From the NCBI GenBank assembly GCA_964598185.1, contig CAZRAT010000001.1:3419-67418 (forward strand): a stretch of DNA of 64,000 bases, read 5' to 3'. The stretch comes from Candidatus Woesearchaeota archaeon. GTDB taxonomy: Archaea > Nanobdellota > Nanobdellia > Pacearchaeales > GW2011-AR1. Positions within the stretch are counted from its first letter, which is position 1; every line of letters starts with the position of its first letter. The translations under genes were made by a program, and so were the position numbers. This document shows positions 3,236-49,390 of the stretch, one piece after another. Below the pieces are notes generated by a model that searched no databases, was not told the origin of the DNA, and saw nothing but the letters and a program-made list of their open reading frames with translations.

Positions 3236-5794
3236 ATGAAAACAGATTTCATCCCAATTGATTATGATTTTTTCGATTTTCAAGGGAAAAACTATGCGAA
3301 AATCATAGGAAGAAACAGCCAAGGCCATAGAGTTTGCATAATAGACTCTTGTCCAATTTACCTCTGGGCTATTTTAAAAGATAATCTAAAAAAAGAGAAG
3401 ATAAACAAATTAATAGAAAAATTAAAAAAAATAAAATTGGATTCAAAAGGAAGAAACACAAAAGTCGAATCAGTGGAATTGCATGAAAAAAAATTTCTAG
3501 GGAAAAAAGTCAAAGCACTAAAAGTTTTCGCAACAAACTACAAAGATTTACACGAGATTGCAAACAAACTTGACTTTTCAGAAATAGAAAAAAGAAGAGG
3601 ATATGATTTAGGACTCACAACACATTACATAATAGAAAAAAATATTTTACCTTTAAACTGGTATGAAATCTCTGGAGAAGTTTTAAACAATTCCTTAGAA
3701 TTTGGGGGAATAGATTCTATTCTTGAAGTTGATTTATGTTTAAAATTAGAGAACTCAAAAAAAATTCCAGACAAAAAATTCAAGCCAAAAGTCCTTTCTT
3801 ACGACATTGAAACAGACTCGTTAAAAATCGGTGAAGGAGAAATATTAATGATTTCATTAGTTTCAGATAATTTCAAAAAGGTTTTAACTTGGAAAGGTAA
3901 AAAAGATAATGAAAAAGAACTTGCGACTTCCATCGGAGGCTCTAAAAGAAGTCGCCGCACAGCACTTCGAGGAAGTTTGAAAGAAACCAACGGGTGTCAT
4001 TCATATGTTGAATATGTAAAAGATGAAACAGAACTTTTGGAAAAATTTGTAGAATACGTCAAAAAAATTTCTCCGGATTTTCTTACAGGATACTTTTCAG
4101 ATGGTTTTGATATGCCTTACATAAAAGCCAGAGCAGAAAAAAACAAAATAAAACTACCCTTAGGTTTAGACGGAACTCAACCAAAATTCTCAAGAGGAAT
4201 AAATTTAACAGGAAAAATAAACGGAATTGTCCACGTCGACCTTTTAAAATTTTTAAGAACTTCTTACGCCCAATATATGCAATCAGAAACCCTTTCATTA
4301 AACGAAGTTTCAAAAGAATTTCTCGGCGACACGAAAAAAGATTTCAAAATGAGGCATTCGTCAAATTTCAAAGGAATGGAGTGGAAAAAATATTACGAAT
4401 ACAATTTACATGATTCAGTTTTAGTCTTCAATTTATTTGAAAAATTCTGGCCAGACTTATTAGAATTTTCAAAAATTATACAAGAACCAATTTTCGAAGT
4501 CTCACGTAATGGTTTGTCAAAACAAGTTGAATCTTACATCTTACATAACCTAAAAACTTTCAATGAAATTCCAGAAAAACGCCCAACCTATGATGAAATT
4601 CGTGAAAGGCGTGAAAGACCTCATTCAAAAGGAGCATTTGTCTTCGAGCCAAAACCAGGGCTTTACAAAAAAATAGCAATGTTCGACTTTACATCAATGC
4701 ACACAAGCATAATCGTCTCATTTAATTTATCAAAATCAACACTTTTAGAAAAAAGGGAAAAGAATTCTTACGAATCTCCGGAGATAAATTACAAAGGAAA
4801 ACAAACAAAATTTTATTTTGAAAAAAAACCAGGATTTTTCCCAATACTTGTAAAAGAAATTTTTGAAAAAAGAAAACAATTCAAAACAGAATACAAAAAA
4901 AACTCAAACACAATCACTCAAGCACGAAGCAATGCATTTAAATTATTATCTGCATCAGTGCACGGCTATGTCGCTTTTTTCGGTGCAAGATATTTTTCAG
5001 CTGAAGCATCAAATTCAATTCTTGCTTTTGTAAGAAAACTAAACAAAGAAGCGATTGAAAAAACAAAAGAAGCAGGTTACAAAGTTATCTATGCTGATAC
5101 CGACAGCGTCGCTTTTTCCCTTGAAAACAAAACCCAAAAACAAGCACTAGAATTTTTAAAAAAATTAAATTCAGAACTTCCAGGAATTATGGAACTTGAA
5201 TTAGATGGATTTTTTGAAAGAGGACTATGGGTCACAACTCGTGCAGGAACAACAGGTGCCAAGAAAAAATATGCTTTAATAGACAAACAAGGAAAAATAA
5301 AAATAAGAGGTTTTGAAACAGTTCGAAGAGATTGGTGCAAAATAGCAAGAGAAGTTCAAAACAAAATTATCAGGCAAATTCTAAAAGAAGGTAATGAAAA
5401 GAAATCGCTTGAATATGTAAAAGAAATAATTAAAAAAATAAAGCAAAGAAAAATTGATAGAGAAGATTTAATTATAAGGACTCAGTTGAAAAAACCAATT
5501 TCAGAATACCTTGCAATTACTCCTCACGTTATTGCTGCAAAAAAAATGCAAGAACAAGAAATTCCAATAAGTCAAGGAAATTTAATAGAATATTTTATCG
5601 CGGAAACTCCCGGAAAGAAAAAACTCGTCAGAGATAGAGTGAAACTTCCTAATGAAAAAGGCGACTACGATATAGATTATTATTTGGAGAACCAAGTTCT
5701 TCCAGCTGTTGAAAACATTTTTCAAGTTTTTGGTTTAAACATTAAAGAAATCATTGATGGTAAGAAGCAGGATAAATTGGAGAAATGGTTTTAA
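3236..5794 (+). CDS. polB: DNA polymerase, family B
   Basis: 852 aa; exonuclease motif LSYDIETDS, polymerase motif C YADTDS (IYADTDSVAF), and a KKKYA-type motif. Confidence 0.9.
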   Translation: MKTDFIPIDYDFFDFQGKNYAKIIGRNSQGHRVCIIDSCPIYLWAILKDNLKKEKINKLIEKLKKIKLDSKGRNTKVESVELHEKKFLGKKVKALKVFATNYKDLHEIANKLDFSEIEKRRGYDLGLTTHYIIEKNILPLNWYEISGEVLNNSLEFGGIDSILEVDLCLKLENSKKIPDKKFKPKVLSYDIETDSLKIGEGEILMISLVSDNFKKVLTWKGKKDNEKELATSIGGSKRSRRTALRGSLKETNGCHSYVEYVKDETELLEKFVEYVKKISPDFLTGYFSDGFDMPYIKARAEKNKIKLPLGLDGTQPKFSRGINLTGKINGIVHVDLLKFLRTSYAQYMQSETLSLNEVSKEFLGDTKKDFKMRHSSNFKGMEWKKYYEYNLHDSVLVFNLFEKFWPDLLEFSKIIQEPIFEVSRNGLSKQVESYILHNLKTFNEIPEKRPTYDEIRERRERPHSKGAFVFEPKPGLYKKIAMFDFTSMHTSIIVSFNLSKSTLLEKREKNSYESPEINYKGKQTKFYFEKKPGFFPILVKEIFEKRKQFKTEYKKNSNTITQARSNAFKLLSASVHGYVAFFGARYFSAEASNSILAFVRKLNKEAIEKTKEAGYKVIYADTDSVAFSLENKTQKQALEFLKKLNSELPGIMELELDGFFERGLWVTTRAGTTGAKKKYALIDKQGKIKIRGFETVRRDWCKIAREVQNKIIRQILKEGNEKKSLEYVKEIIKKIKQRKIDREDLIIRTQLKKPISEYLAITPHVIAAKKMQEQEIPISQGNLIEYFIAETPGKKKLVRDRVKLPNEKGDYDIDYYLENQVLPAVENIFQVFGLNIKEIIDGKKQDKLEKWF

Positions 5795-17287: not shown

Positions 17288-17411
17288 TGGCCCTGGAGGG
17301 ATTTGAACCCCCGACACCTAGATATCTCTGAAACAAGTCCAGTTTAAATTCGCTGAACAAAGTTCATTGTCTTAAGAGTCTAGTGCTCTAACCAGGCTGA
17401 GCTACAGAGCC
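17288..17411 (-). tRNA. tRNA-Lys (anticodon CTT) with a ~49-nt intron at the canonical 37/38 site; CCA not encoded
   Basis: Reverse complement gives GGCTCTG-TA-GCTCAGCCTGGTTAGAGC-A-CTAGA-CTCTTAA-[intron GACAATG...AGATA]-TCTAG-GTGTC-GGGGGTTCAAATCCCTC-CAGGGCC-A; all stems pair. Confidence 0.8.
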
Positions 17412-35777: not shown

Positions 35778-35870
35778 ATTTTATTTAGGAAACTAGATTA
35801 TATAAAAACTCGTATGGTATAACATAACCTTCACAACATTTATTAATAATAATTGCTAATAAATTAAAAG

Positions 35871-37340
35871 ATGGTGAAAAAAAAGAACATGCGATTTCCA
35901 TCGGAAGCCCTTAAAGAAATCGCTAATCGGAACAGGAAGGGAAAATCGAAAAAAACCGCGAGGTTGTTTTCATCTCCTAAAATAGAAAAATTAAAGAAAA
36001 AAGCAAGAAAGTACAGCATAAAAGAAGGAATTTTTACTTCAGCTAAAAACTCCTTTGGAGATTATTATGTTTCTCCATTTGCAATTGCAATTAATTCAAG
36101 TTCATCGGTTGTTGCTATGATAAGTGCTTTCAGCGGATTGCTCGGTCCAATAAGCCAAATGTTCGGCTCAAGACTACCTGAAAAATACCCTAGGAAAAAA
36201 ATTGTTCTAAGAAGTATTTTTTTCGAATCATTAATTTGGTTGCCGTTTATTGCAATTGCAATTTTGTTCTATAGCGGGATTTTATTAGAATCTCTTCCAA
36301 TTTTGGTTTTATTTTCTTTTTCATTATATACAATTGCAGGAAATCTTGGATATCCAGCATGGTTTTCTTGGATGGGTGATATTGTTGAAAATAAACACAG
36401 AGGAAAATATTTCTCAAAAAGAAATCTTTTAATGGGATTCACTTCTGTTGTTCTAGCAATCTCCGCGGCATTTTTCCTAGATTATTTTGGGAAAAACCAC
36501 CATATAATGTTCGGATTTGCAATTTTATTTTCTTTAGCATTACTCTCAAGATTAACTTGTTGGAAAATTCTCCATAAACAATACGAACCAAAAATAAAAT
36601 TAAAAAAAGGTTACTACTTTTCATTTTGGGATTTTTTAATTAATTCAAATAAAAATAACTTCGGAAAATTCTCATTATTCAGATTCTTTTTCACATTCAC
36701 AACTGCAATCTCAAGCCCTCTTTTAGTAGTTTATCTTCTAAGACATTTAAATTTTTCATACACTGCGTATATGGTAATAATCTTCTCAGGAACAATTTTC
36801 TCATTAATTGTTTTAGAATTGTGGGGAAAATTCGCAGACAGATATGGTAATTATAGGACACTATGTATTTCAACTTTAATAATTCCTTTTATTCCAATAT
36901 TGTGGGTTTTAAATTCAAATATTTTTTATTTAATTTTCATCCCGTCAGCATTAAGCGGAATTGCTTGGGCAGGAATCCACTTGTCTGAAACAAATTTTAT
37001 ATACGATAATGTTAGTTACCAAAAAAGGGGGCTCGCAATTTCCTATTACAATATGTTCTGGGGAATTGGACTTTTCTTAGGAGCATCACTAGGGGCACTT
37101 TTAATAAAAATCCTCGACACTAATTTCATACAACCAATAATTTTAATATTCATTATTGGTGCATTAGCAAGAGCTGCATCAGTTATATGGGGGCTTCCAA
37201 AAATAAAAGAAATTAAAAAAACAAAAAAATTCACATCTTCAAAAGCATTCAAGGAAATTATCATGAAAGAAGGAGCCCCAACAATCCATGAAGAAGTAAA
37301 TGATATTATTCATATAAAAAAATATTTATATCTTAAATAA
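35871..37340 (+). CDS. Polytopic membrane transporter (MFS-like); its first ~30 codons are a copy of the duplicated hairpin element
   Basis: 489 aa, about 12 hydrophobic helices; the N-terminal MRFPSEALKEIANRNRKGKSKK... is encoded by repeat 35891-35958. Confidence 0.35.
   Translation: MVKKKNMRFPSEALKEIANRNRKGKSKKTARLFSSPKIEKLKKKARKYSIKEGIFTSAKNSFGDYYVSPFAIAINSSSSVVAMISAFSGLLGPISQMFGSRLPEKYPRKKIVLRSIFFESLIWLPFIAIAILFYSGILLESLPILVLFSFSLYTIAGNLGYPAWFSWMGDIVENKHRGKYFSKRNLLMGFTSVVLAISAAFFLDYFGKNHHIMFGFAILFSLALLSRLTCWKILHKQYEPKIKLKKGYYFSFWDFLINSNKNNFGKFSLFRFFFTFTTAISSPLLVVYLLRHLNFSYTAYMVIIFSGTIFSLIVLELWGKFADRYGNYRTLCISTLIIPFIPILWVLNSNIFYLIFIPSALSGIAWAGIHLSETNFIYDNVSYQKRGLAISYYNMFWGIGLFLGASLGALLIKILDTNFIQPIILIFIIGALARAASVIWGLPKIKEIKKTKKFTSSKAFKEIIMKEGAPTIHEEVNDIIHIKKYLYLK
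35891..35958 (+). repeat. Duplicated hairpin element, copy A (fused in-frame to the transporter N-terminus)
   Basis: GCGATTTCCATCGGAAGCCCTTAAAGAAATCGCTAATCGGAACAGGAAGGGAAAATCGAAAAAAACCGCGAGG; perfect 8-bp inverted repeat GCGATTTC/GAAATCGC. Confidence 0.65.
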
Positions 37341-37376
37341 GAACTTATTTAAACTAATCAAAATTATCTTTTAGTT

Positions 37377-38027
37377 ATGTTCAAAAAAAGAAAATGCCAA
37401 AATTGCAATAGAAAAATAAATAAAAGTTATGATTTCTGCCCTCATTGTGGAAACTCTTTTAATAAAAACGCAGAAGACTGGGGGATGTTAGGAAAAACAG
37501 ACACCATAAATGAATTTGAACAATTTTCTAATTCTTTGTTCGGAGGAGTTGGGGGAAAGATAATCGGAGGGATGTTGGGAAAAACACTCAAAATGTTAGA
37601 AAACGAAATACACAAAGAACTTCAAAATCAAAACAAGACTCCAAAAACAAATTTTGAATTAATAATAAATGGTAAAAGAATTGACCCAAAAGATATAAAA
37701 TTATCACATCAAAAGCAAGTTGTCAAAGAACAAAGAAAAATTCTTCCAAATATTTCGAACGAATCTCTCAAAAAAATCTCAACCTTGCCAAAAAAAGAAC
37801 CTTTAACAAATATAAGAAGATTCGCAGATAAAGTAATATATGAAATAAATATGCCTGGAGTAAATTCAATAAACAACATTTCAATAATCAGCCTCGAGAG
37901 CAGCATTGAAATAAAAGCCCTCGCAGACAAAACAGCTTACTTCAAAATAATTCCTATAAACCTTCCTATAACCAATTATCAATTTCTAGATGAAAAATTA
38001 ACTCTTGAGCTAGGGATTAAAAATTAA
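37377..38027 (+). CDS. Zn-ribbon protein with a C-terminal Hsp20-like beta domain
   Basis: 216 aa; CQNCN...CPHCG, glycine-rich linker, and a C-terminal alpha-crystallin-domain-like segment. Confidence 0.3.
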   Translation: MFKKRKCQNCNRKINKSYDFCPHCGNSFNKNAEDWGMLGKTDTINEFEQFSNSLFGGVGGKIIGGMLGKTLKMLENEIHKELQNQNKTPKTNFELIINGKRIDPKDIKLSHQKQVVKEQRKILPNISNESLKKISTLPKKEPLTNIRRFADKVIYEINMPGVNSINNISIISLESSIEIKALADKTAYFKIIPINLPITNYQFLDEKLTLELGIKN

Positions 38028-38030
38028 TAT

Positions 38031-38052
38031 GAGCCTGCACGGATTTGTGGGT
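38031..38052 (-). repeat. Partial copy of the tRNA-Ile 3' end (CAAATCCGTGCAGGCTCA), about 75 nt downstream of the gene
   Basis: Plus strand atgagcctgcacggatttg occurs at 38031 and again at the gene 3' end (38121). Confidence 0.6.
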
Positions 38053-38121
38053 TGTTTTTTCAAAACTCTCCGTCGTCCGAAATTTCAATTTCAAACGAAA
38101 CCACAAGCGCTTCAAATAATA

Positions 38122-38240
38122 TGAGCCTGCACGGATTTGAACCGTGGACCCCTACCTTTCTGAATCGTATATCGGTTCTAAAGAAACGAACTCGTTTGTA
38201 CTTATCAGAGTAGTGCTCTGCCAGACTGAGCTACAGGCTC
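38122..38240 (-). tRNA. tRNA-Ile (anticodon GAT) with a ~45-nt intron; CCA not encoded
   Basis: Reverse complement gives GAGCCTG-TA-GCTCAGTCTGGCAGAGC-A-CTACT-CTGATAA-[intron GTACAAACGAG...CAGAAA]-GGTAG-GGGTC-CACGGTTCAAATCCGTG-CAGGCTC-A. Confidence 0.8.
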
Positions 38241-38261
38241 ATATAGTATCGAGCAAAATGA

Positions 38262-38280
38262 GATACTATTTAAAATTTAT
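38262..38280 (-). promoter_or_regulatory. Putative TATA box/BRE for tRNA-Ile (minus-strand AAATTTTAAATAG, about 27-35 nt upstream of the tRNA 5' end)
   Basis: AT-rich TTTTAAATA element at the typical archaeal spacing. Confidence 0.35.
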
Positions 38281-38457
38281 GTATGTGAAGGATGACAGTC
38301 AGACAAAGATATTAAACAGCGACAAATTTTAAGAATCAATAACAGATTTTCACTGACCTAATTTAGCTACAGGATCACATATAAATCATATAATTAAGTT
38401 ATTTATCAATTTTGTTAACCCCAAAACCTTTAAAAATTAAAATTCTCTCAACATTTC

Positions 38458-39063
38458 ATGGTAGAAGAAAAACCAAAGGAAAATCTAAAAGGAGTAAAAG
38501 GACTTTATCATTATTTAAGGCAAGCGTGGAAAAAACCTGACAAAAAAACTCTTCGAGAAAGAATGATTGCGTGGAGGAAATCAGGAGTGTTCACAAAAGT
38601 TGACAAACCACTTAGATTAGATAGAGCAAGAACCCTTGGATACAAAGACAAAAAAGGATTTGTCGTAATAAGAATTCGATTGAAGAGAGGAGGTCACAAA
38701 AGACCACGACCAAACAAAGGTAGAAGATCTAAAAGACTTCACACTAGAAAAAATTTAAAAATGAATTACAAATGGATTGCAGAACAAAGAGTTGAAAGAA
38801 AATATAAAAATCTTGTAGTTCTAAATTCATATCCAATTGGAAAAGACGGAATTCATTATTTCTACGAAGTAATTTGTGTTGACCCAACAAAACCAGAAAT
38901 AAAAAATGACAAAACAATGAAATGGGTTTGTGAACCTACAAACAAAAAAAGAGCAATGAGGGGATTAACTTCTGCAGGAAAAAAATCTAGAGGATTAAGA
39001 AGTAAAAATCCAATGAATAAATCACGTCCAAGTATGAGAGCTGGTGGAAGAAAAGGAAAATAA
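38458..39063 (+). CDS. rpl15e: 50S ribosomal protein L15e
   Basis: 201 aa; RLGYKDKKGFVVIRIRLKRGGHKRPRP...YFYEVICVDP...RGLTSAGKKSRGL matches the L15e consensus; a TTTAAAAATT box lies 30 nt upstream. Confidence 0.9.
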   Translation: MVEEKPKENLKGVKGLYHYLRQAWKKPDKKTLRERMIAWRKSGVFTKVDKPLRLDRARTLGYKDKKGFVVIRIRLKRGGHKRPRPNKGRRSKRLHTRKNLKMNYKWIAEQRVERKYKNLVVLNSYPIGKDGIHYFYEVICVDPTKPEIKNDKTMKWVCEPTNKKRAMRGLTSAGKKSRGLRSKNPMNKSRPSMRAGGRKGK

Positions 39064-39327
39064 ATGAAAAAATCATTCACAACGGAACAAGCAAAAGAAA
39101 TTGGTGAACAAATAGGAATCAAGTGGGACAAATTTGATATTGAACAATTTCGTATAGGGATGGACGTTGAACTTGAACACGGAACTATTGATTCTAACAC
39201 AAATGTCACAGACGATGATCCATTAACAACAGGCAAAATCGCATTAGCACATCTAAACGAATTCCCAGATTACTATACCAGACTTGACAAAATGGAAAAA
39301 GAAGGGGACAAGTTTTGGAAGAAATAA
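39064..39327 (+). CDS. Hypothetical small acidic protein
   Basis: 87-aa ORF starting at the L15e stop (TAAATG). Confidence 0.3.
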   Translation: MKKSFTTEQAKEIGEQIGIKWDKFDIEQFRIGMDVELEHGTIDSNTNVTDDDPLTTGKIALAHLNEFPDYYTRLDKMEKEGDKFWKK

Positions 39328-39357
39328 TCTTAAAAACACCTTCTTCTTAAAATAAAT

Positions 39358-39588
39358 ATGGTGATAAATCTCTTTCAAATAATTGGTACATTAGGATTAA
39401 TCTCTATAATTAATGGAACTTTTTTGTTGACAAAAAAATCAAGAAAAAGAAAAACAATTTTCGCTTTTCTATTATTAGGAGGAATTTTATTAGAAATTTA
39501 TAGTATCTACATAAAAGACCCAATCTTTATAATTCTTCAAGCAGTTTACATAATTGTAGCAATCTACGGATGGTTAAAAATAAAATGA
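39358..39588 (+). CDS. Small membrane protein
   Basis: 76 aa with two hydrophobic helices. Confidence 0.25.
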   Translation: MVINLFQIIGTLGLISIINGTFLLTKKSRKRKTIFAFLLLGGILLEIYSIYIKDPIFIILQAVYIIVAIYGWLKIK

Positions 39589-41288
39589 ACTATCTAAAAC
39601 TCGCACAACTTTATGAAGAATTGTCCTCAACAACAAAAAGACTTGAAAAAATAAAAATACTTTCTAAATTCCTTGTACACCTTTCAGATAAAGACAATGA
39701 ACTAATGTATTTATTACAAGGAGACATTTACCCAGAATATGATGAAAGAAGAATTGGTATAAGCAACCAGTTAGCAATAAAAGCTATTTCAAAAGCAACA
39801 GGAACAAACCCAAAAAAAATAATCCAAGAATGGAAATCCGTCGGAGACTTAGGAAAAACTTCTGAAAAATTCACCTTGCACAAAAAACAATCAACACTTC
39901 ATTCACATATTGTAACTACTGAAAAAGTTTTAGAGAACCTAAGAAAACTCCCTGAATTAGAAGGCAAAGGAACAGTGAACAAAAAACTCGCTCTAATCAC
40001 AGAACTCTTAACATCTGCCGAACCCTTAGAAGCCAAATATTTAATCAGAACATTAATCGGGGACTTAAGAATTGGTGTTCAAGAAAGCACAATAAGAGAA
40101 GCAATCTCTTCGGCATTTTTTGATAGAGACAAACACGCATCTGAAATAATCCAAAGAGCAATTGATAAATCAAATGATGTTGCAGAAGTTTTTGATATTG
40201 CTAAAAAAGGTAAAATAAAAGAACTAGAAAAAATAAAACTCCAAGTTGGAAAACCTATCAAAGCCATGTTGGCTCAAAAAGTAAATACAATTAAAGACGG
40301 ATTTAAAGAAGTCGGTCAGCCTTGTGCAATAGAATACAAATATGATGGTTTCAGACTCCTTATCCATAAAAATTCAGAAGGAATAAAATTATTTACAAGA
40401 AGTTTAGAAAATGTCACAAAACAATTTCCAGAAATTGTAGAATACATTGAAAAATATGTTAAAGGAAAATCATTTATCTTAGATTCCGAGGCTGTTGGAT
40501 TTGATAAAAAAACAAAAGAATACAAAGTTTTCCAAGATATTAGTCAGAGAATTAGAAGAAAACACAATATTGAAAGATTACAAAATAAACTTCCAGTAGA
40601 AGTAAATGTTTTTGATATACTTCATTATAATGGAAAATCCCAATTAGATGAACCTTTTGAAAAAAGAACAGCAATAATAAAAAAGATAGTCGAGAATCAT
40701 CCTTACAAAATAATTTGTGCTAAACAAATCACAACTAGTGATGAAAAAAAAGCAAAAGAATTCTACAAAGAAGCATTAAAAAATAATCAAGAAGGAGTTA
40801 TGATGAAAAATCTTAAAGCAGAATATAAACCAGGGAGGAGAGTTGGACATATGATTAAAATAAAACCTGAAGAAAAAGATTTAGATTTAGTAATAACTGG
40901 CGCAGAATATGGAACAGGAAAAAGAAGTGGTTGGTTATCAAGTTTTATACTTTCATGTAAAGAAAATGGAAAATATTTAGAAATTGGAAAAGTTGGCACA
41001 GGCATCAAAGAGAAATCTGAACAAGGAATTTCTTTTGAAGAATTAACCAAACTACTAAAACCATTAATCACAAAAGAAAAAGGGAGACATGTAGAAATAA
41101 AACCAAAAATTGTCGTCTCAGTAACTTATCAAGAAATACAAAAGTCCCAAAACTATGATTCGGGTTTTGCTTTAAGATTTCCAAGATTTACTGCACTCAG
41201 ATTAGACAAACCACTTTCAGAAATAGCAAACATAAATGAAATAAAAAAAGATTTTGAAAAACAAAAAAGAAATTATCATTACGGGTAA
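39570..41288 (+). CDS. lig: ATP-dependent DNA ligase
   Basis: 572 aa; adenylation motif I AIEYKYDGFR and a C-terminal OB domain. Confidence 0.9.
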   Translation: MVKNKMNYLKLAQLYEELSSTTKRLEKIKILSKFLVHLSDKDNELMYLLQGDIYPEYDERRIGISNQLAIKAISKATGTNPKKIIQEWKSVGDLGKTSEKFTLHKKQSTLHSHIVTTEKVLENLRKLPELEGKGTVNKKLALITELLTSAEPLEAKYLIRTLIGDLRIGVQESTIREAISSAFFDRDKHASEIIQRAIDKSNDVAEVFDIAKKGKIKELEKIKLQVGKPIKAMLAQKVNTIKDGFKEVGQPCAIEYKYDGFRLLIHKNSEGIKLFTRSLENVTKQFPEIVEYIEKYVKGKSFILDSEAVGFDKKTKEYKVFQDISQRIRRKHNIERLQNKLPVEVNVFDILHYNGKSQLDEPFEKRTAIIKKIVENHPYKIICAKQITTSDEKKAKEFYKEALKNNQEGVMMKNLKAEYKPGRRVGHMIKIKPEEKDLDLVITGAEYGTGKRSGWLSSFILSCKENGKYLEIGKVGTGIKEKSEQGISFEELTKLLKPLITKEKGRHVEIKPKIVVSVTYQEIQKSQNYDSGFALRFPRFTALRLDKPLSEIANINEIKKDFEKQKRNYHYG

Positions 41289-41321
41289 ATTTATAAACTA
41301 ATTTTCATTTAAAAACCCAAT

Positions 41322-41888
41322 ATGGTAGGAAAAAAGTCCAAAAGCGATTATAAAATTCAAAACATCGTTGCTACAACTTCTTTAGGAAAACCAATTCCTT
41401 TAACAAAACTAGCAAGAACACAGCCAAACACAGAATACAATCCTGAAACATTTCCAGGTCTTGTTCTAAGAGTAAAGGAACCGAAATCTGCTGTCCTTGT
41501 TTTTTCTTCAGGAAATCTTGTTTGCACAGGAACAAAATCAGTTTCTCAAGTGAGACAAGTAATTCAAGCAGTAATAAAACAACTAAGAAAAATAAGCGTC
41601 AACATAACAATAAAACCTGTAATAACGGTTCAAAATATTGTTGCTTCAGGCACAATTAATCTCAAACTTAATTTAAATTTTCTGGCATTAGAAATGCAAA
41701 ACACAGAATATGAGCCAGAACAATTTCCAGGTCTTGTCTATAAATTAATAGAACCAAATGCAACATTCTTACTTTTTAGCAATGGAAAACTTGTTTGCAC
41801 AGGAACAAAAAACAAGCAACAACTAGAAATTAGCATGCAACAACTTCTAAAAAATGTCAAAACTGCTTTGAAGAATTATAAGAAATAA
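41322..41888 (+). CDS. tbp: TATA-box binding protein
   Basis: 188 aa; two repeats QNIVATTSLGKPI...FPGLVLR / QNIVASGTINLKL...FPGLVYK. Confidence 0.9.
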   Translation: MVGKKSKSDYKIQNIVATTSLGKPIPLTKLARTQPNTEYNPETFPGLVLRVKEPKSAVLVFSSGNLVCTGTKSVSQVRQVIQAVIKQLRKISVNITIKPVITVQNIVASGTINLKLNLNFLALEMQNTEYEPEQFPGLVYKLIEPNATFLLFSNGKLVCTGTKNKQQLEISMQQLLKNVKTALKNYKK

Positions 41889-41980
41889 TTATTTAAAACC
41901 ACTAAAAAGTAATCCTATTTTTCTAAAACTACTTAATAATCCACATAAATTTATAAAAACTCTCCCCTATTTTTTTAGCT

Positions 41981-44011
41981 ATGGAAGAAGAGGAAGACCA
42001 ACCAAGACCAAAAAACGAGGAATTAATGATTGAGGCAAAAAATTTCTTTGAATCTTACAAAAAAGAATTAGGAGAATCTTTGAAAAAAGCAGACAATGTT
42101 ATTTATTTGGATTTTATTAAATTGACCGAATTCTCAAACAAACTTGCAGATGAAATACTTTCAAATCCAGAAGAAACTCTAAGTCTTATTGAACAAGCTG
42201 TTGAAGAATCAGGCCTTGTAAAAAACTCCAGAATAAGATTAAAGAATTTACCAAAAATACAAGAGATGAAAATAAGGAACATTCGTTCAAAGCACCTAAA
42301 TGAATTAATCGTTATAGAAGGAATTATTCGTCAAGCTTCAGATGTCTTGCCCCAAGTTGTAAATGCAAAATTCGAGTGCCCAAGTTGCGGAACAGTTATC
42401 TCTGTTTTACAAATTGAAAAAAAATTCAGAGAACCAGCAAGATGCTCGTGCGGAAGAAGGGGCGGGTTCAAATTACTTTCAAAAGAAATGGTTGACACTC
42501 AAAGATTAGTAATTGAAGAATCTCCTGAATCTTTAATGGGGGGAGAACAGCCAAAAAGAATTGATACTTTTGTAAAAGAAGATTTAGTTGAACCGCGAAT
42601 GGAAGAAAAAACAACTCCTGGCGCGCGAATAAAAATCATCGGCATATTAAAAGAAGTTCCTGTGCCCTTATCAACAGGAGGTTTATCAACAAGATTTGCT
42701 CTGGCTGTTGAAGTAAACAACATAATTCCCTTGGAAGAAACTTTTGAAGAATTAGATATAAGCGAGGAAGATGAAAAACAAATTTTAGAATTATCCGAAG
42801 ACCCAGAAGTATTTGAAAAATTAGCAAGAAGTATAACTCCAAGTGTTTGGGGTTATGAAGAAATAAAAAGATCTTTAGTTTTACAATTATTTTCAGGCGT
42901 GCAAAAAGTTTATGCAGACGGACAAAAAAGCAGAGGAGACATCCACATTTTATTAATCGGCGACCCAGGTGTAGCAAAATCAGTAACCTTGGGATTTATG
43001 GCAAACATTTCCCCAAAAGGAAGATATGTTGTGGGCAAATCAGCCTCCGGGGCAGGACTAACCGCAACCGTGGTGAGAGACGAGTATCTAAGGGGTTGGA
43101 GTTTAGAAGCAGGAGCAATGGTATTAGCAAACAAAGGGCTTGTCTGCATAGATGAATTAGAAAAAATGGACCCAGGTGACAGAAGCGCCATGCACGAGGC
43201 AATGGAACAGCAAACTGTGACAATCTCAAAAGCTAATGTGCAAGCAACACTTCGTTCAGAAACGTCTGTCCTTGCCGCCGCAAACCCAAAATTCGGAAGA
43301 TTCGACCCATACCAATCAATAGCACAACAAATTGACTTGCCCCCAACACTAATCAACAGGTTCGATGTTATATTTACATTAAGAGATTTACCAGACAAAG
43401 AAAAAGACAGCAGAATTGCAAGCCATGTTTTATTAGAACATAGAAAACAAGGAGAAACAATGCTTATTCCAAGAGACTTATTTAGAAAGTACATTGCTTA
43501 TTCCAAACAAAGAATAAAACCACAATTAAGCGACGAGGCTGTTGCAGAAATAAAAAAATTCTATGTTGATTTAAGAAACAAACCTGTTTCATCAGATAGT
43601 GCAACAAGACCAATCCCAATTTCAGCCAGGCAGTTGCAAGCACTCATTAGATTGTCTGAAGCCTCAGCAAAAGTAAAACTAAGAGAAATAGTTACAAAAG
43701 AAGATGCTCAAATAGCAATTGGAATCATAAAATATTATTTAACCCAAGTTGGTTATGATTACGAATCCAAAACTTTTGACATTGATAAAATTACATTAGG
43801 TAGAACAGCTTCACAAAGAAATAAAGTGTTTATCGTAAGAGACTTAATAACAGAACTTGAAGACAAAATGGGAAAATTAATTCCTATTGAAGAAATTGAA
43901 AAAGAAATCAAAGACAAATTAACCAAAACAGAATTAGAAGACGCAATCACCGAACTTGTAAAAAACAGCATTATTTTCAAACCACGAAGAGGTTATGTTC
44001 AGAAGATGTAA
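41981..44011 (+). CDS. mcm: MCM replicative helicase
   Basis: 676 aa; Zn finger CPSCG...CSCG, Walker A GDPGVAKS, Walker B CIDELEKM, arginine finger SARQ, C-terminal winged helix. Confidence 0.9.
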   Translation: MEEEEDQPRPKNEELMIEAKNFFESYKKELGESLKKADNVIYLDFIKLTEFSNKLADEILSNPEETLSLIEQAVEESGLVKNSRIRLKNLPKIQEMKIRNIRSKHLNELIVIEGIIRQASDVLPQVVNAKFECPSCGTVISVLQIEKKFREPARCSCGRRGGFKLLSKEMVDTQRLVIEESPESLMGGEQPKRIDTFVKEDLVEPRMEEKTTPGARIKIIGILKEVPVPLSTGGLSTRFALAVEVNNIIPLEETFEELDISEEDEKQILELSEDPEVFEKLARSITPSVWGYEEIKRSLVLQLFSGVQKVYADGQKSRGDIHILLIGDPGVAKSVTLGFMANISPKGRYVVGKSASGAGLTATVVRDEYLRGWSLEAGAMVLANKGLVCIDELEKMDPGDRSAMHEAMEQQTVTISKANVQATLRSETSVLAAANPKFGRFDPYQSIAQQIDLPPTLINRFDVIFTLRDLPDKEKDSRIASHVLLEHRKQGETMLIPRDLFRKYIAYSKQRIKPQLSDEAVAEIKKFYVDLRNKPVSSDSATRPIPISARQLQALIRLSEASAKVKLREIVTKEDAQIAIGIIKYYLTQVGYDYESKTFDIDKITLGRTASQRNKVFIVRDLITELEDKMGKLIPIEEIEKEIKDKLTKTELEDAITELVKNSIIFKPRRGYVQKM

Positions 44012-44212
44012 AAGTTTGATTAAAAGGGGTTATATTCTATTTTAGGGAGAATCATAAATAAACTTATGATTCCATGTTATTGCTTGGCTTCGCCCAAATT
44101 TTAATTCTTCTTTTCCTCCCGCCCTAACAAGAGGAGAGATAAGCCCGCATCCTTCGGACAAATAGTCTAGGCTTAACTCAGTAGAAAAGAATATAAGTTA
44201 TGATTCTTAAGA

Positions 44213-44692
44213 ATGGCTATAGATGTAATTATAAAAACTGCAACAATGGAGGATATAAAAAAGATTCAAGAATTAAGTTTTAAATTATCTAAAAAAGAGC
44301 AAAAAGAATATGATTCTTTATTGGATTTAAGAAAAGACGAATCTAAGCACTATAAAGATAGAATTTCTCAAGATGATAGCTGTGTTTTTGTTGCTATTGT
44401 CAATAAAAAGATTATTGGTTATTTATGTGGAAAATTAGCTAAAACCGGATCTTTCGGACGATTACCTACCGTCTCTGTCGCTGAAATAGAAACCTTCTTT
44501 GTTTTAGATAAGTTTAGATCTAAAGGAATCGGCAAAAAACTATATGAAAAATTTATTGAATGGTGTAAGGCAAAAAAGGTAAACAAAGCAAGATTAGATG
44601 TGCATCATCAAAACAAATTGACATTAAAATTTTATAGAAAAAACAATTTTGAAGATTATTATTTAACCTTAGAAAAAGATTTTCTTTTTTAG
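44213..44692 (+). CDS. GNAT-family N-acetyltransferase
   Basis: 159 aa; acetyl-CoA-binding motif FRSKGIGKKLYEKFIEW. Confidence 0.7.
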   Translation: MAIDVIIKTATMEDIKKIQELSFKLSKKEQKEYDSLLDLRKDESKHYKDRISQDDSCVFVAIVNKKIIGYLCGKLAKTGSFGRLPTVSVAEIETFFVLDKFRSKGIGKKLYEKFIEWCKAKKVNKARLDVHHQNKLTLKFYRKNNFEDYYLTLEKDFLF

Positions 44693-44871
44693 AAAAAAGA
44701 AACAAAAAGCAGGCTTATCTCTCCAATACATTGGTCGTCCCACCTCCTCCCCAACCTGAAAAGAAAAATTAAAACTCTGCGAAAATCAAAGATTTTCTTG
44801 CCACGCCTTGCAGGATTCTCCATCCAAAAAATCTCATAAAAACTTATAAACCATAAACTATTTTTCTTCAT

Positions 44872-45501
44872 ATGACCGAACAACAACAATTCAAACGAAA
44901 CATTGCATTTAAATTAAGAATTGGAGATGTCTTAATGGGAAAACCAATAACGGAAGGAGAAAGGTTTTCAAATTTAGAATTGGGAGATAAAAAAATTGTC
45001 AGAGTAAATGTAATCGGCAACATTGTTGACAAATACAACAGCGAAGGTGAAACAAAATTCACTTCATTAACTTTTGACGATGGTTCAGGCCAGATAAAAT
45101 TAAAATTCTTTGGAGATGATGTAGAAAAATTCAAAGAAGTTTCCCAAGGGCAAACTGTCTTAGTTATCGGGGTTCTAAGAAACTGGAACAATGAAACTTA
45201 TATCCAACCAGAGATAATAAAAGAACAAGACACAAAATACCTTCTTGTCAGAAAACTTGAAATTGAAAAAGAAAAAAACAAAACACCAGACCCTGTTGGA
45301 AGAGACCAAATTGTCGCAGTCAAAGACAAAATACTTAATACAATCAAAAACGCAGAAGAAGACGGGGGAATTGAAATGGACAAAGTAATCATGAATTTAA
45401 GAGACATCTCCCCAACAATCATAAACCAAGAAGTCCAAAAACTACTTGAAGAAGGAATTGTGTTTGAACCAAGACCTGGAAGAGTTAGATATTTAGGTTA
45501 A
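44872..45501 (+). CDS. OB-fold ssDNA-binding protein with a C-terminal winged helix (RPA2/RPA32-like)
   Basis: 209 aa; OB core VRVNVIGNIV...QTVLVIGVLRNWNNETYI followed by a winged helix; sits near MCM. Confidence 0.4.
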   Translation: MTEQQQFKRNIAFKLRIGDVLMGKPITEGERFSNLELGDKKIVRVNVIGNIVDKYNSEGETKFTSLTFDDGSGQIKLKFFGDDVEKFKEVSQGQTVLVIGVLRNWNNETYIQPEIIKEQDTKYLLVRKLEIEKEKNKTPDPVGRDQIVAVKDKILNTIKNAEEDGGIEMDKVIMNLRDISPTIINQEVQKLLEEGIVFEPRPGRVRYLG

Positions 45502-45511
45502 ATTTATTTAA

Positions 45512-45910
45512 TTAAGAATAATTTTTTTCTAATGTAAAATGCCTGTTTCTCCCAAGGTATGAAACAAAAGACAAAAATAAGGAATCATTTTGTACGAAGG
45601 GGGCATTTAATTTTCGGGTTTCATATTCCTCACCAAATTGAATCGCTTTTTGTTCATAAGAATCATCTTTTAAAGTCATAAAACCAGAATCTATAAGCAA
45701 ATTTATTAGTGCAACTTGTGAACCAGAAGATTTCTTATTTATGGAAATTCCAAGATCTTCATGTAAAGAAGTAGCACAATCGTCAAAAACTTCTTTAACT
45801 AATTTTTCCACTTCTCCTATTCTTTTTTTTCTAGCCACAGTTTCAGAAGTTACATCCCTGATTTTCATAAAAAATAAAGAAGTGGCAAGTTTATAAAAAT
45901 TTATATTCAA
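45512..45910 (-). CDS. Hypothetical protein
   Basis: 132-aa ORF. Confidence 0.25.
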   Translation of the reverse strand: MNINFYKLATSLFFMKIRDVTSETVARKKRIGEVEKLVKEVFDDCATSLHEDLGISINKKSSGSQVALINLLIDSGFMTLKDDSYEQKAIQFGEEYETRKLNAPFVQNDSLFLSFVSYLGRNRHFTLEKNYS

Positions 45911-45915
45911 AAGAA

Positions 45916-46539
45916 TTATTTCTTTTTATTCTTAACAGGCTTCCCAAACTTTTTATTAAACCAATAAGCCAAAAATATAACTGCTACCAAACCTAATAAA
46001 GAAATTATAAATCTAAACAATTCTCCTCCATATTGCCAATAACTTCCAGCACCATAAACTAAAGTTCCAACTCCTCCACCCATTAATCCTGCTCCAACTG
46101 CCTCAAGGTGAAAAAGAAATCCTCCAATCAATAAAATCAAAATTCCAAAAGGCAAAGCAACATAAAAAATCTTTTTTGCCCGTTCTTCTCGCGCATCATC
46201 ATAATTTTGTCTACAAGTAAAATCCCTATCACAAAAACCCTCTGCACCTTCAACAGGCTTCACAGCCTCATAAACACTCCACTTGCCCCCAATCTCCTCG
46301 CACCTTTCTTGAGTCTGAATTACTTCTTGTGTTTTCACATCTCCACAAAAATCCTCATATTGTTGAATAGGATAAAAAACACTAATACCATTAATAGTCA
46401 CAAAAATCGTCAATACAACAATTGCAATTCCAAGAATAATGTTCTTCAAACTCATAAAAAATAAAAGACAAAACATTTTATAAACTCTTCTACTACAATT
46501 AAAATATGACAAACTATGAAGAATTACTTGAACAAGCAT
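45916..46539 (-). CDS. Membrane protein with a Cys-rich extracytoplasmic segment
   Basis: 207 aa; N-terminal TM, several Cys residues, C-terminal TM. Confidence 0.3.
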   Translation of the reverse strand: MLVQVILHSLSYFNCSRRVYKMFCLLFFMSLKNIILGIAIVVLTIFVTINGISVFYPIQQYEDFCGDVKTQEVIQTQERCEEIGGKWSVYEAVKPVEGAEGFCDRDFTCRQNYDDAREERAKKIFYVALPFGILILLIGGFLFHLEAVGAGLMGGGVGTLVYGAGSYWQYGGELFRFIISLLGLVAVIFLAYWFNKKFGKPVKNKKK

Positions 46540-46916
46540 ACGAAAAAGTGAAACAAGTTGATAATTCTAGCGAAAGATTTAAAATTCCACAAGTTGAAGG
46601 GCATTTTGAAGGAAGAAAGACAGTTTTGACAAACTTTTTCCAAATCGCTTCTCATCTAAGAAGAAAACCAGAACATTTTCAAAAATTTCTCTTAAAAGAA
46701 CTCGCAGCATCAGGACAACAAGAAGAAGACAGACTCATCTTAAATATAAAAGTTTCAAGCGCAAAAATAAATCAGAAAATAGAACAATATGTCAAGGAAT
46801 TCATTCTATGCAAAGAATGCGGAAAACCAGATACAGAATTAACAAAAGAAGACAGACTAACATTTATTAATTGCCTGGCGTGTGGAGCAAAACACAGTGT
46901 AAGGAGTAAAATCTAA
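46506..46916 (+). CDS. eif2b: Translation initiation factor aIF2 beta subunit
   Basis: 136 aa; C-terminal C4 Zn ribbon CKECGKPDTEL...CLACGAKH and the eIF2-beta/eIF5 core. Confidence 0.8.
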   Translation: MTNYEELLEQAYEKVKQVDNSSERFKIPQVEGHFEGRKTVLTNFFQIASHLRRKPEHFQKFLLKELAASGQQEEDRLILNIKVSSAKINQKIEQYVKEFILCKECGKPDTELTKEDRLTFINCLACGAKHSVRSKI

Positions 46917-46964
46917 ATCAAAAACCTTATAAAACAAATTCTCTTAGAAAATAAAAGATTCATA

Positions 46965-46996
46965 CCCTAAAAATTTAGGGGTACACCAAGTGGTGT
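46965..46996 (-). repeat. Palindromic mini-element, truncated intergenic copy lacking the central hairpin
   Basis: CCCTAAAAATTTAGGGGTACACCAAGTGGTGT: conserved GGGGTAC plus ACACC/GGTGT hairpin and CCCTAAA/TTTAGGG palindrome. Confidence 0.55.
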
Positions 46997-47025
46997 TGAA
47001 TTAAATTAAATTTGAGGTAAAAAAA

Positions 47026-47175
47026 ATGACAGAAGGATATTGTGTTAAGTGTAAAAAAAAGGTTGAAATGCTAAAACCTGTAGAAAGCAAGACCAAAAAA
47101 GGCACAAAAATTGCCAAAGGGAAATGCCCTGACTGCGGAACAACTGTTTGCAGAATGGGTGGGATAACAAAATAA
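47026..47175 (+). CDS. Small Zn-ribbon protein (49 aa); below the ORF-track cutoff
   Basis: MTEGYCVKCKKKVEMLKP...GKCPDCGTTVCRMGGITK with CxxC...CxxC; GAGGT ribosome-binding site 8 nt upstream. Confidence 0.4.
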   Translation: MTEGYCVKCKKKVEMLKPVESKTKKGTKIAKGKCPDCGTTVCRMGGITK

Positions 47176-47260
47176 TTAAATTTATTAATTAATTCTTCCA
47201 GCTAGCCACGCTTTGATAGTCGTTAGTAAAGTTTTTAACTTTACTAATTTTTATTTTTTT

Positions 47261-47560
47261 ATGATTTTAATCAAAATACACAAATCTTATCGGGAAGTGG
47301 TTGCTATTTGTGATTCTAATTTAATTGGAAAAAAATTTGAACAAGGAAAATTCCAATTAGATCTTAAAGAATCTTTTTACAAAGGAGAAGAATACAACGC
47401 AAAAAAAACAAAAGAAATAATTAAAAAAACGTCTGCAGAAGACGCAACTTTTAATATTGTAGGAGAAAAATCAATTCAATGCGCAATCGAAACCGGGATA
47501 TTCACAAAAGAAAACACAAAAAAAATTCAAGGCATTCCTTTTGCATTGGTTTTGATCTAA
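47261..47560 (+). CDS. Conserved archaeal small protein (DUF424-like)
   Basis: Internal ATG start; MILIKIHKSYREVVAICDSNLIGKKFEQGKFQLDLKESFYKGEE...NIVGEKSIQCAIETGI. Confidence 0.4.
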   Translation: MILIKIHKSYREVVAICDSNLIGKKFEQGKFQLDLKESFYKGEEYNAKKTKEIIKKTSAEDATFNIVGEKSIQCAIETGIFTKENTKKIQGIPFALVLI

Positions 47561-47805
47561 ACAATTAATCGGAATTTCTTTTGTTTTTTATCATAAATAA
47601 AAGAATAAGTATTAAGTGTCCCTTCATCTCTTTTGAAAGTCTCTGCACTTGCTTCAGGAAATGTAAAATAACAAAAAGCACCAATAACCAATTCCAAATC
47701 TTTTTTTGCTTCATCTTCTGATTTAAATCCCCAACATGATTGATAGTTCATTTTATTCCAAATCCTATGACCATAAATTTCTTTCATTAGGTTTAACTTA
47801 ATCAA
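47557..47805 (-). CDS. Hypothetical protein
   Basis: 82-aa ORF. Confidence 0.25.
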   Translation of the reverse strand: MIKLNLMKEIYGHRIWNKMNYQSCWGFKSEDEAKKDLELVIGAFCYFTFPEASAETFKRDEGTLNTYSFIYDKKQKKFRLIV

Positions 47806-47878
47806 CTATTTATAATAATTTATATGGTCTACAAATATTTCTCCAAAACTTTATAAAACAAAACCTTCTTCTTTTACT

Positions 47879-47986
47879 ATGAAATTAAAACTATTGGCTT
47901 TCAAGCGATTTCCATCGGAGGCTCTTGAAGAAATCGCATCACGGAACAAGAAGGGAAATCCAAAAAAACCGCTTAGGTTTTGTTGA
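47879..47986 (+). CDS. Upstream ORF/leader peptide (35 codons) encoded by the duplicated hairpin element; its TGA stop lies 1 nt before the aIF1A ATG
   Basis: ATG AAA TTA ... MKLKLLAFKRFPSEALEEIASRNKKGNPKKPLRFC*; about 82% nucleotide identity to the 5' end of the 35871 gene. Confidence 0.3.
   Translation: MKLKLLAFKRFPSEALEEIASRNKKGNPKKPLRFC
47905..47982 (+). repeat. Duplicated hairpin element, copy B (forms the uORF upstream of aIF1A)
   Basis: GCGATTTCCATCGGAGGCTCTTGAAGAAATCGCATCACGGAACAAGAAGGGAAATCCAAAAAAACCGCTTAGG; about 82% identical to copy A. Confidence 0.65.
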
Positions 47987-47987
47987 A

Positions 47988-48314
47988 ATGAAACCAAAAA
48001 AGTTTCTACCAAATCCAGACGAACCAAAAATTATGCGGGCTCCACTTCCAAGAGGCAGAGAAGTAATTGGAATAATTGAACAACGACTTGGAGGAAACAA
48101 AATGATGGTGAACTGCCTTGATGGAAAACAAAGAAACTGCCGGGTTCCAGGAAGATTAAAACGAAGACTCTGGCTTCGCCCAGAAGACGTTATAATTTTA
48201 GAACCTTGGGAACTTAACGACACAAAAGCAGACATTCTTCTCAAATACAAACCAAACCAAATAGCATGGTTAAAAAGAGAAGGTTATTTGAAGACTGAGA
48301 AAGAAGAGTTTTAA
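47988..48314 (+). CDS. eif1a: Translation initiation factor aIF1A
   Basis: 108 aa; EVIGIIEQRLGGNKMMVNCLDGKQRNCRVPGRLKRRLWLRPEDVIILEPW...KADILLKY matches the S1-like eIF1A fold; the start was moved from the track's TTG to the in-frame ATG. Confidence 0.8.
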   Translation: MKPKKFLPNPDEPKIMRAPLPRGREVIGIIEQRLGGNKMMVNCLDGKQRNCRVPGRLKRRLWLRPEDVIILEPWELNDTKADILLKYKPNQIAWLKREGYLKTEKEEF

Positions 48315-49261: not shown

Positions 49262-49390
49262 ATTCTTTTATGTCCCGGTGGCTCAGTTGGTAGAGCGATC
49301 GGCTGTTAAGTACAAATCAAGATTTGTTCATTCCATAATCTTGAAATTACGGAAACCGATAGGTCGCTGGTTCGAGTCCAGCCCGGGACG
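49262..49390 (+). tRNA. tRNA-Asn (anticodon GTT) with a ~56-nt intron; followed by a T8 run
   Basis: GTCCCGG-TG-GCTCAGTTGGTAGAGC-G-ATCGG-CTGTTAA-[intron GTACAAATCAAG...GGAAA]-CCGAT-AGGTC-GCTGGTTCGAGTCCAGC-CCGGGAC-G. Confidence 0.8.

Follow-up and report, generated by a model that had tools for sequence, protein, structure and literature searches.

A structured ~81-nt repeat of DPANN archaea, probably mobile, at gene starts and in frame within essential proteins

Introduction

Rickettsia palindromic elements (RPEs) are short hairpin repeats of a reduced genome that lie in frame within unrelated and often essential genes, the orthologues of which lack them (PMC10969869). The repeats of bacteria that resemble MITEs (short for miniature inverted-repeat transposable elements) have been reviewed, and archaeal MITEs have been listed for Sulfolobus (SM1–4), Halobacterium and Haloquadratum (PMC10969869). 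Here, we describe a repeat element with a core of ~81 nucleotides (nt) and two hairpins, found in three copies in a 64,000-nt stretch of contig CAZRAT010000001.1 (hereafter the window, meaning the whole stretch analysed). Copy A lies at the start of a gene for an MFS transporter, copy B directly before the gene for the translation initiation factor aIF1A, and copy C within the gene for a family-B DNA polymerase (PolB). The relatives of PolB and aIF1A indicate a Pacearchaeota-like DPANN archaeon, and the GC content of the window is 31%. The element is probably a non-autonomous mobile (or formerly mobile) repeat of the RPE/MITE kind, with a strong preference for ATG triplets and start sites, which would create translationally coupled upstream open reading frames (uORFs) at leaderless genes.

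Correia elements (CREE), ERIC, BOX and RUP can become part of 5´ untranslated regions and change expression, and these elements carry terminal inverted repeats and defined target duplications (for example, TA for Correia). The elements derived from IS200/IS605 and the REP/RAYT systems have no terminal inverted repeats, depend for their function on hairpins in single-stranded DNA, insert in one orientation beside a short target and may build arrays. The transposition of tRNA introns in Thermoproteales involves intron-sized sequences that are common to tRNA genes. On the side of translation, coupling in Haloferax needs overlaps or very short distances between stop and start codons (PMC10666635).

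The literature was searched by sequence, peptide and topic, and no description of the element was found there. No new principle is involved; what has been found is a structurally constrained repeat, without an earlier description in the literature searched, that remodels gene starts and essential proteins.

Anatomy of the Repeat Element and Its Copies in the Window

Copies A and B had been noticed in a sequence-only reading of the window, as an element duplicated at the 5´ ends of two genes with an identity of about 82%. Both the places and the identity hold: the copies are 77% identical over 83 nt when no gaps are made, and ~82–85% once a 1-nt indel is allowed. The perfect 8-bp inverted repeat with a 17-nt loop described in the same reading (GCGATTTC/GAAATCGC) is present in each of the two copies and forms hairpin 1. 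A pattern of the 33-nt core, allowing up to three mismatches, matches the window at 35891–35923, 47905–47937 and 3923–3955, and gives no match in 100 shuffles. The three copies are all on the forward strand (Table 1). Neither nhmmer with a profile of the three copies nor a covariance model detects further copies in the window, and a partial match at 49015–49050 is left unscored by both.

A second hairpin is found near the 3´ end in all three window copies, with A/T-rich arms and a CC/GG closing (for example, CAAAAAAACC..GGTTTTGTTG). Hairpin 1 (the GCGATTTC stem) and hairpin 2 (the AAAAAACC stem) are unrelated in sequence. The element also exists in a longer form of ~122 nt, composed of the core and a 41-nt 5´ module, and the 5´ extension of copy B looks, by its sequence, like a shortened version of this module. 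No family of Rfam 15 matches the element at the gathering score, and the window yields only three tRNAs in this comparison.

The Family Beyond the Window

Exact-pattern scans recovered seven copies in three GTDB genomes (labelled Pacearchaeota, Nanoarchaeota and Woesearchaeota) and 22 metagenome loci with the element. A covariance model built from 24 copies gave 41 matches at E<=1e-8 in 223 kb, with some duplicate loci among them, and three PolB copies were found elsewhere. In total, the search for further copies, which had been proposed together with the first two, brought out the third window copy and ~40 distinct copies in ~300 kb of related loci from genomes and metagenomes, including diverged copies outside the reach of the patterns. 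A loop-free pattern had no match in viral contigs.

The genes around the copies were assigned through Pfam or Rfam. The 3´ end of the element lies 0–7 nt upstream of the ATG of aIF1A (two lineages), S4e, L11, S3Ae (two genomes), L10e, Spt5, FttA, an RpoP-like zinc ribbon protein (three genomes), an HVO_A0114-family protein (two) and several membrane proteins. In two cases, only a few nt separate the end of the element from the 5´ end of a tRNA, and an 88–90-nt intron of tRNA-Gly(GCC) consists almost entirely of one copy, antisense to the tRNA. The gene-proximal copies are all in sense orientation. Of 40 copies, 25 have an ATG between −2 and +9 nt relative to their 3´ end, compared with 15% of random positions, and this ATG opens an open reading frame (ORF) of at least 30 amino acids (aa) in 18 of the 40 (4.6% at random positions). 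On the 5´ side of the core an ATG is present in ten of the 40 copies (AT, then the GCGA of the core).

Within genes, the element occupies PolB, a Bud32/RIO-like kinase (between HGDLTTSNM and DFG), the N-terminal tail of the MFS transporter and, as a degenerate copy (L004 497–587), the Lys-rich N-terminal tail of a 329-aa nucleotidyltransferase-like protein (L004 369–1358). All of the intragenic copies are in frame and open. Tandem arrays of the element with a period of 84–86 nt are also found, as are nested copies, in which another element of ~60 nt sits inside the loop of hairpin 1. The element family appears to be modular.

Two other sequences were observed in association with the element. 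The loop of hairpin 1 contains, or is truncated by, a third repeat, of ~60 nt (CGGAGGCCGAGCGATTTCGTGGTAGAGACATATAGAGATTTCAATCTCTCGTGCGAAGTCGCGAG), at L033 1534–1668, at L036 ~250–400 and, in L008, at ~4200–4270 and ~5280–5340. A different 5´ module of ~50 nt, with a hairpin of its own (GGGAAACC..GGTTTCCC), precedes two copies (L019 ~4670–4725 and L024 ~3737–3795, the latter on the minus strand).

Filled and Empty Sites

The three window sites are empty in close relatives. In PolB, copy C takes the place of the three-residue turn that Pfu PolB has between ITWKN and PYVE. The 11 nearest PolB homologues (78–89% amino acid identity, nearly all of 823–824 aa) lack this insert of ~28 aa, and a nucleotide alignment with one homologue shows a clean difference of 84 nt at the site. 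The reading frame used by copy C (..ELATSIGGSKRSRRTALRGSLKETNGC..) differs from that of copies A and B, and in the PolB frame a stop codon has been removed (TCTTAAAG to TCTAAAAG). Related inserts are present at the same place in more distant PolBs. The total is 17 of 121 sequences, scattered over a neighbour-joining tree, on which at least 14 state changes are needed. In the DNA of three insert-bearing PolBs the stems are compensated (GCGACTTC/GAAGTCGC, GCGATTTC/GAAATCGC and GCGGCTTT/AAAGCCGC), and the loops vary in sequence and length.

At the MFS gene, homologues with 86–87% identity lack the element, have 459–460 aa and begin with MVKKD.. or MVEDSKE.., and homologues of 458–462 aa start with MVKKD... 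The alignment with L041, a relative with an empty site, covers the promoter and the ATG corresponding to 35871. Because of these homologues and this empty site, 35871 is taken as the ancestral start, which makes copy A an insert that follows codon 6 in frame. The earlier claim that the element is read in frame in the 489-aa protein is thus borne out, but not the claim that it forms the N-terminus itself; nor is the element found at the transporter N-terminus in the close relatives, a comparison that had been proposed. Sequence comparison makes 35871 the most likely start of the MFS gene, rather than the ATG at 35889, 18 nt downstream, from which the protein would begin with MRFPSEAL. The public gene call (P0241, 483 aa) begins at the ATG at 35889, which was created at the 5´ edge of the element, and is probably an annotation error due to the insert.

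Separately, a different insert of ~20 aa (..KKLTQKEKILKNPATTKT..) was observed at the N-terminal position of copy A in many MFS homologues (P0285, P0297, P0313, P0314, P0317, P0318, P0320, P0337, P0344 and P0352), and P0294 has at this position a longer, apparently nested version of the element peptide. The MFS N-terminal site seems to be a hot spot.

The 5´ region of aIF1A presents both states. The element is absent in relatives with 81, 84 and 85% identity (L014, L015 and L042/L043), in which the ATG follows a TTTATAAA-type box by ~21–24 nt, as would be expected of a leaderless mRNA. In the window, the corresponding box (CTTTATAAAAC, 47849–47859) is followed by 20 nt and then by the uORF ATG at 47879, so that this ATG has the position of the aIF1A ATG in the element-free relatives. 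The element is present at the same place in L012, a more distant, syntenic relative with 76% identity, where the stem shows a compensated change (GCGATTTT/AAAATCGC) and the uORF, of 40 codons and ending in TGATTATG, has been annotated as a 40-aa ORF by a gene caller. Comparison of the aIF1A 5´ regions had been suggested as a check on conservation, and its outcome is both filled and empty sites. As a side observation on this region, a promoter-proximal segment of ~110 nt before aIF1A is tandemly duplicated in L014 (~1800–2000; TTTTTTTCAAAAATATTTATA..AAACTTTTATA..).

The cores of copy B and the L012 copy are 94% identical, compared with 76% for the aIF1A coding sequence (60% at third positions) and 49% for the upstream DNA. 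The PolB inserts are 70–85% identical, compared with 74–77% for the coding sequence and 59% for third positions. These differences imply, as judged from the sequences, that the element does not undergo neutral decay; either selection acts on its structure, or the copies are subject to homogenisation or replacement. The downstream genes of other loci, such as S4e, L11 and S3Ae, have no counterpart in the window by tblastn, so that no empty site is available there.

Conservation of the Nucleotide Structure

In an alignment fitted to the model, with a sample chosen in part with Y/R-degenerate patterns, hairpin 1 is 99% paired, with changes on both sides at four of its eight pairs, and hairpin 2 is 89% paired, with changes on both sides at three of eight; none of 500 shuffles reaches these values for either hairpin, and the slid controls collapse. 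Hairpin 1 is also recovered by RNAalifold on a plain, unfitted MAFFT alignment, and copies that had not been selected by the patterns add the stems ATGATTTC/GAAATCAT and GCGACTT/AAGTCGC. The departures from pairing in the stem of hairpin 1 are mostly G–U wobbles, with no A–C mismatch, which weakly suggests that the sense-strand RNA is what matters. Folding of the copies, another of the checks that had been put forward, does find the hairpins, but the energies of single sequences are no better than those of shuffles (z −0.1 to −1.2), so that it is covariation, rather than stability, that argues for structure. An alternative 7-bp pairing between segment 1, which pairs with segment 2 in hairpin 1, and a third segment located downstream (GATTTCC/GGAAATC) is available in 25 of 38 copies and is lost in variants with one extra A.

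The sequence-only reading had also proposed that the encoded peptide is constrained, on the grounds of three synonymous differences between copies A and B. The three differences are there in its frame (GAA/GAG, GCC/GCT and GCT/GCA), but the constraint is not supported by the rest of the family. The frame RFPSEALKEIA.. is open in most copies. The second half of the element is read in at least three frames, and the loop of hairpin 1 is freely replaced among copies and varies in length. A stop codon interrupts one array copy, a start codon is missing from several copies, and PolB uses another frame. The substitutions in the stems are compensatory and non-synonymous, with no synonymous variation, and the codons of the element (CGA, TCG, GAG and CGG) are GC-rich and atypical for a genome with 31% GC. 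Taken at the level of sequence, it is the nucleotide structure that is conserved and not the peptide.

Upstream ORFs at Gene Starts

At the aIF1A locus, the element forms the 35-codon ORF that had been described for copy B, with its TGA 1 nt before the aIF1A ATG. The same geometry recurs in ~10 other copies, in which an ATG opens a frame that ends at a stop located −8 to +2 nt from the downstream ATG. The lengths of the uORFs across copies range from 27 to 47 codons, and the stop–start junctions seen are TGATG, TGAATG, TGAAATG, TGATATG and TGATTATG. The arrangement taken earlier as translational coupling thus stands as geometry, but not as a device dedicated to aIF1A. In L033, the uORF before S3Ae has an uninterrupted frame between its ATG and TGA in spite of a very different loop and peptide, which hints that openness itself is under selection. 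The 3´ arm of hairpin 2 contains an SD-like (Shine–Dalgarno-like) AGGT/GAGGTG, and the arm terminates shortly before the ATG; between hairpin 2 and the ATG there are 0 to 7 nt.

The long 5´ module is found in 13 of 40 copies and begins with ATG in most of them, and an in-frame ATG is present in 11 of the 13. Its AATTAAATTAA, located 26 nt before GCGA, was considered as a promoter that would make the core a 5´-terminal leader. Transcription from an upstream promoter would be the favoured arrangement, because a canonical TATA is well spaced from the module ATG and because of the in-frame ATG in nearly all long copies.

A possible course of events can be proposed from this geometry. The element would be tolerated where its harm is small, that is, in frame in surface turns and tails of proteins, in a tRNA intron and, chiefly, at ATG and start sites. 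In the last case, it would come to separate the original start ATG from another ATG, which becomes the start of the gene, and its open frame would turn into the uORF. Translation of the uORF would begin at the old start site, as a 5´-terminal AUG, and stop within the few nt around the gene ATG, after which the gene would probably be translated by termination–reinitiation. The translating ribosome would also open hairpin 2, which would otherwise cover the SD-like motif upstream of the ATG. The flanking ATG could be either a 3-bp duplication or a target preference. As a speculation, the preference for the starts of highly expressed genes would be explained by a single-stranded-DNA mechanism that acts at open promoter complexes.

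A more specific proposal, which we put forward only tentatively, is that the mobile element seeks start sites, integrating at an ATG at or near the transcription start of active leaderless genes and tRNAs, perhaps by way of the single-stranded DNA that open promoter complexes expose, and that it is "translationally transparent". Its frame would begin at the old start codon and end on the new one, so that a leaderless gene would become uORF-coupled and still be alive. The same transparency would permit residence in frame in essential proteins such as PolB.

Comparison with Described Systems

The closest analogue is provided by the RPEs. Like them, the element forms hairpins and lies in frame in PolB, a kinase, an MFS transporter and a nucleotidyltransferase-like protein, the orthologues of which do not have it. 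The hosts of the element are archaeal (DPANN), and a homology in sequence would not be expected. The core has 81 nt, compared with ~100–150 bp in RPEs; the peptide is not conserved, several frames being used; and most copies are placed exactly at start codons or tRNA 5´ ends, with stop–start coupled uORFs. To our knowledge, such a placement with coupled uORFs is not a feature of RPEs.

The element shares with classical MITEs its small size, its non-coding nature and its multiple copies, but not the terminal inverted repeats. Archaeal MITEs are likewise small non-autonomous repeats of archaea; however, they are derived from insertion sequences, have terminal inverted repeats and are mostly intergenic. 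Correia, ERIC, BOX and RUP elements resemble it as small, multi-copy, structured repeats near gene starts, and the difference from them lies in the lack of terminal inverted repeats and in ATG as the sole recurrent flank. The two subterminal hairpins and the one-sided preference for ATG are reminiscent of IS200/IS605-derived elements and REPs, from which the element differs in that its hairpins are unlike each other, REPs have 20–40 nt and no TnpA or RAYT is linked to it. The ATG bias and the sense orientation of gene-proximal copies would suit a target rule of the IS200/IS605 type, yet the spacing varies and one copy is antisense in a tRNA intron. The tRNA introns of Thermoproteales move among tRNAs, whereas one and the same element is common here to a tRNA intron, ORFs and start sites.

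With regard to translation, the stop–start distances of −8 to +2 nt are within the range described for coupling in Haloferax (PMC10666635), although the upstream cistron is here the open frame of a repeat standing before many genes and not a gene. What appears to be new is the combination of DPANN archaeal hosts, coupled uORFs adjacent to start codons, and a single element that is found across ORFs, start sites and a tRNA intron.

Weighing the Explanations

The family and its anatomy, its distribution, the filled and empty sites, the in-frame inserts, the covariation of the stems and the geometry next to ATG are direct observations, from which we infer mobility as a process, translation of the uORFs and their coupling. 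A mobile mini-element was one of the options left by the sequence-only reading, and it is supported because ~40 copies are present in several genomes and in unrelated contexts, with the window sites empty in close relatives. Several points weigh against it. An inverted-repeat search of five copies with their flanks found only the internal hairpins and no terminal inverted repeats. An ATG on both sides is common, yet many copies lack one or both, and no target-site duplication is unambiguous. No transposase was noted beside any copy in the loci examined. The PolB copies are a sequence subtype of their own, closer to each other than to copies A and B, and their patchiness may reflect precise repeated loss or allele exchange rather than repeated insertion. 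Since the loci were mostly fetched by pattern match, the counts of contexts are not an unbiased census. Finally, a selected shared leader would also be in keeping with an element that is highly conserved at the aIF1A locus and enriched before genes of translation and transcription.

Such a leader is the serious alternative, although we consider it unlikely. The element would be a selected 5´ leader RNA shared by translation and transcription genes for common stability or regulation, acting as a 5´-proximal hairpin, as a switch between hairpin 1 and the alternative pairing or as a protein-binding site, and its intragenic and array copies would be by-products of its spread. Contexts enriched in highly expressed information-processing genes, the uniformly sense orientation near genes, the recurrence at S3Ae and the RpoP-like gene, the core at aIF1A being far better conserved than its surroundings, stem mismatches that are G–U wobbles on the sense strand and not A–C, and the alternative pairing itself are all in line with this explanation. 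It is harder to reconcile with the lack of the element at the same genes in close relatives, which implies that it is dispensable, and with the copies in ORFs, the antisense copy in a tRNA intron, the tandem arrays and the nested inserts; moreover, the loop of hairpin 1 is freely replaced, Rfam offers no match and the alternative pairing does not survive in the extra-A variants. Control specific to aIF1A, the peptide of the uORF or its translation sensing something and the transporter copy being a duplicate, is very improbable and largely refuted by the distribution: the element also precedes S4e, L11, S3Ae, L10e, Spt5, FttA and two tRNAs, it is absent at aIF1A in the three closest relatives compared and its peptide is not conserved across copies, however suggestive the promoter-proximal uORF ATG, the adjacent stop and the same arrangement in L012 may be.

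There is hardly any probability left for a true family of small proteins of ~27–47 aa (..RFPSEALKEIA.RNRKGNPKKPLRF) encoded upstream of other genes by chance. The frames of the second half, the internal stop, the missing start codons, the atypical codons, the compensatory non-synonymous stem changes, the position of some copies directly before tRNAs and the other frame in PolB all speak against it, set against one frame open in most copies and the 40-aa ORF annotated in L012. An intron-like mobile element that is excised from RNA, for example, by the archaeal splicing endonuclease, so that its insertions would be phenotypically silent, is equally improbable. This possibility is raised by the copy that makes up nearly the whole tRNA-Gly(GCC) intron and by the introns in all three window tRNAs, but that copy is antisense to its tRNA, and no bulge–helix–bulge is evident at the ends of the element, though without a rigorous search. 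Translation rather than splicing is favoured, because open in-frame copies throughout and a PolB stop mutated away are what selection through translation would leave. The non-autonomous mobile repeat is the probable explanation. Two further candidates were rejected: repeats of a diversity-generating retroelement, as the differences are not adenine-specific and the target-gene architecture is lacking, and a CRISPR-like array, as the tandem units abut without spacers.

Implications

If the mobile-repeat explanation is true, streamlined DPANN genomes hold an unannotated family of structured repeats, and the starts of core translation and transcription genes switch from leaderless to uORF-coupled, which would be a natural experiment on leaderless initiation and on termination–reinitiation. 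The element adds loops of ~28 residues to essential proteins, for example, the replicative polymerase. Insertions in universal proteins serve as phylogenetic characters, and the PolB insert, with its many gains or losses among the sequences compared, shows that homoplasy is possible in such characters. Annotation is affected as well, through spurious ORFs of 35–40 aa and misplaced starts, such as that of the MFS gene. With compensated hairpins inside a coding region, it becomes possible to ask whether the structure of RNA or that of single-stranded DNA is the target of selection.

Features of the Window

The positions of the copies, their hairpins and the genes that they adjoin are collected in Table 1.

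Table 1. Coordinates, in the 64,000-nt window, of the element copies and the associated genes and signals.
Feature	Position	Strand	Details
PolB ORF	3236..5794	+	852 aa; copy C in a turn of the exonuclease domain
Copy C	3923..4003	+	In frame in PolB, in a frame different from A/B; stem GCGACTTC/GAAGTCGC
TATA-like box of the MFS gene	35839..35849	+	TTTATTAATAA, ~30 nt before ATG 35871; conserved with L041; putative promoter
MFS transporter ORF	35871..37340	+	489 aa; begins MVKKKN-MRFPSEALKEIANRNRKGKSKKTARLF-SSPKIEKL, the middle part from the element
Copy A, 81-nt core	35891..35971	+	Covariance model R1, 88.5 bits; in frame after MFS codon 6
Hairpin 1 of copy A	35891..35923	+	GCGATTTC/GAAATCGC, 17-nt loop
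Hairpin 2 of copy A	35950..35970	+	AAAAAACC gcga GGTTGTTT; RNA fold and family-wide pair counts
TATA-like box before the uORF	47850..47858	+	TTTATAAAA; starts 29 nt upstream of the uORF ATG; putative promoter
uORF formed by the element	47879..47986	+	35 codons; TGA (47984–47986) 1 nt before aIF1A ATG 47988
5´ extension of copy B	47879..47904	+	26 nt (ATGAAATTAAAACTATTGGCTTTCAA); comparison with L012, L008 and L016
Copy B, 81-nt core	47905..47985	+	Covariance model R1, 99.2 bits; its end lies 2 nt upstream of the aIF1A ATG
Hairpin 1 of copy B	47905..47937	+	
Hairpin 2 of copy B	47961..47985	+	CAAAAAAACC gctta GGTTTTGTTG; 3´ arm bears SD-like AGGT and a T-run
aIF1A gene	47988..48314	+	108 aa; Pfam eIF-1a; homologues 106–114 aa

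The three tRNA genes found by Rfam lie at 49272–49390 (forward strand), 17288–17411 (reverse) and 38122–38240 (reverse), each with an intron of 47–53 nt just after the anticodon. A GTACAAA-like start is common to these introns, which have no relation to the element. ARAGORN reported no tRNA in the window, missing these intron-containing genes. Another repeat, which the sequence-only reading had listed as its first family, is present in four copies of TTGCCCTTAGTAAAAATCTTCGTAGAAGATTTATCGGGGTACRC (1063–1118, 28563–28618, 52669–52724 and 53611–53666). It has a hairpin of its own (AAATCTTC/GAAGATTT) and is unrelated in sequence to the ~81-nt element.

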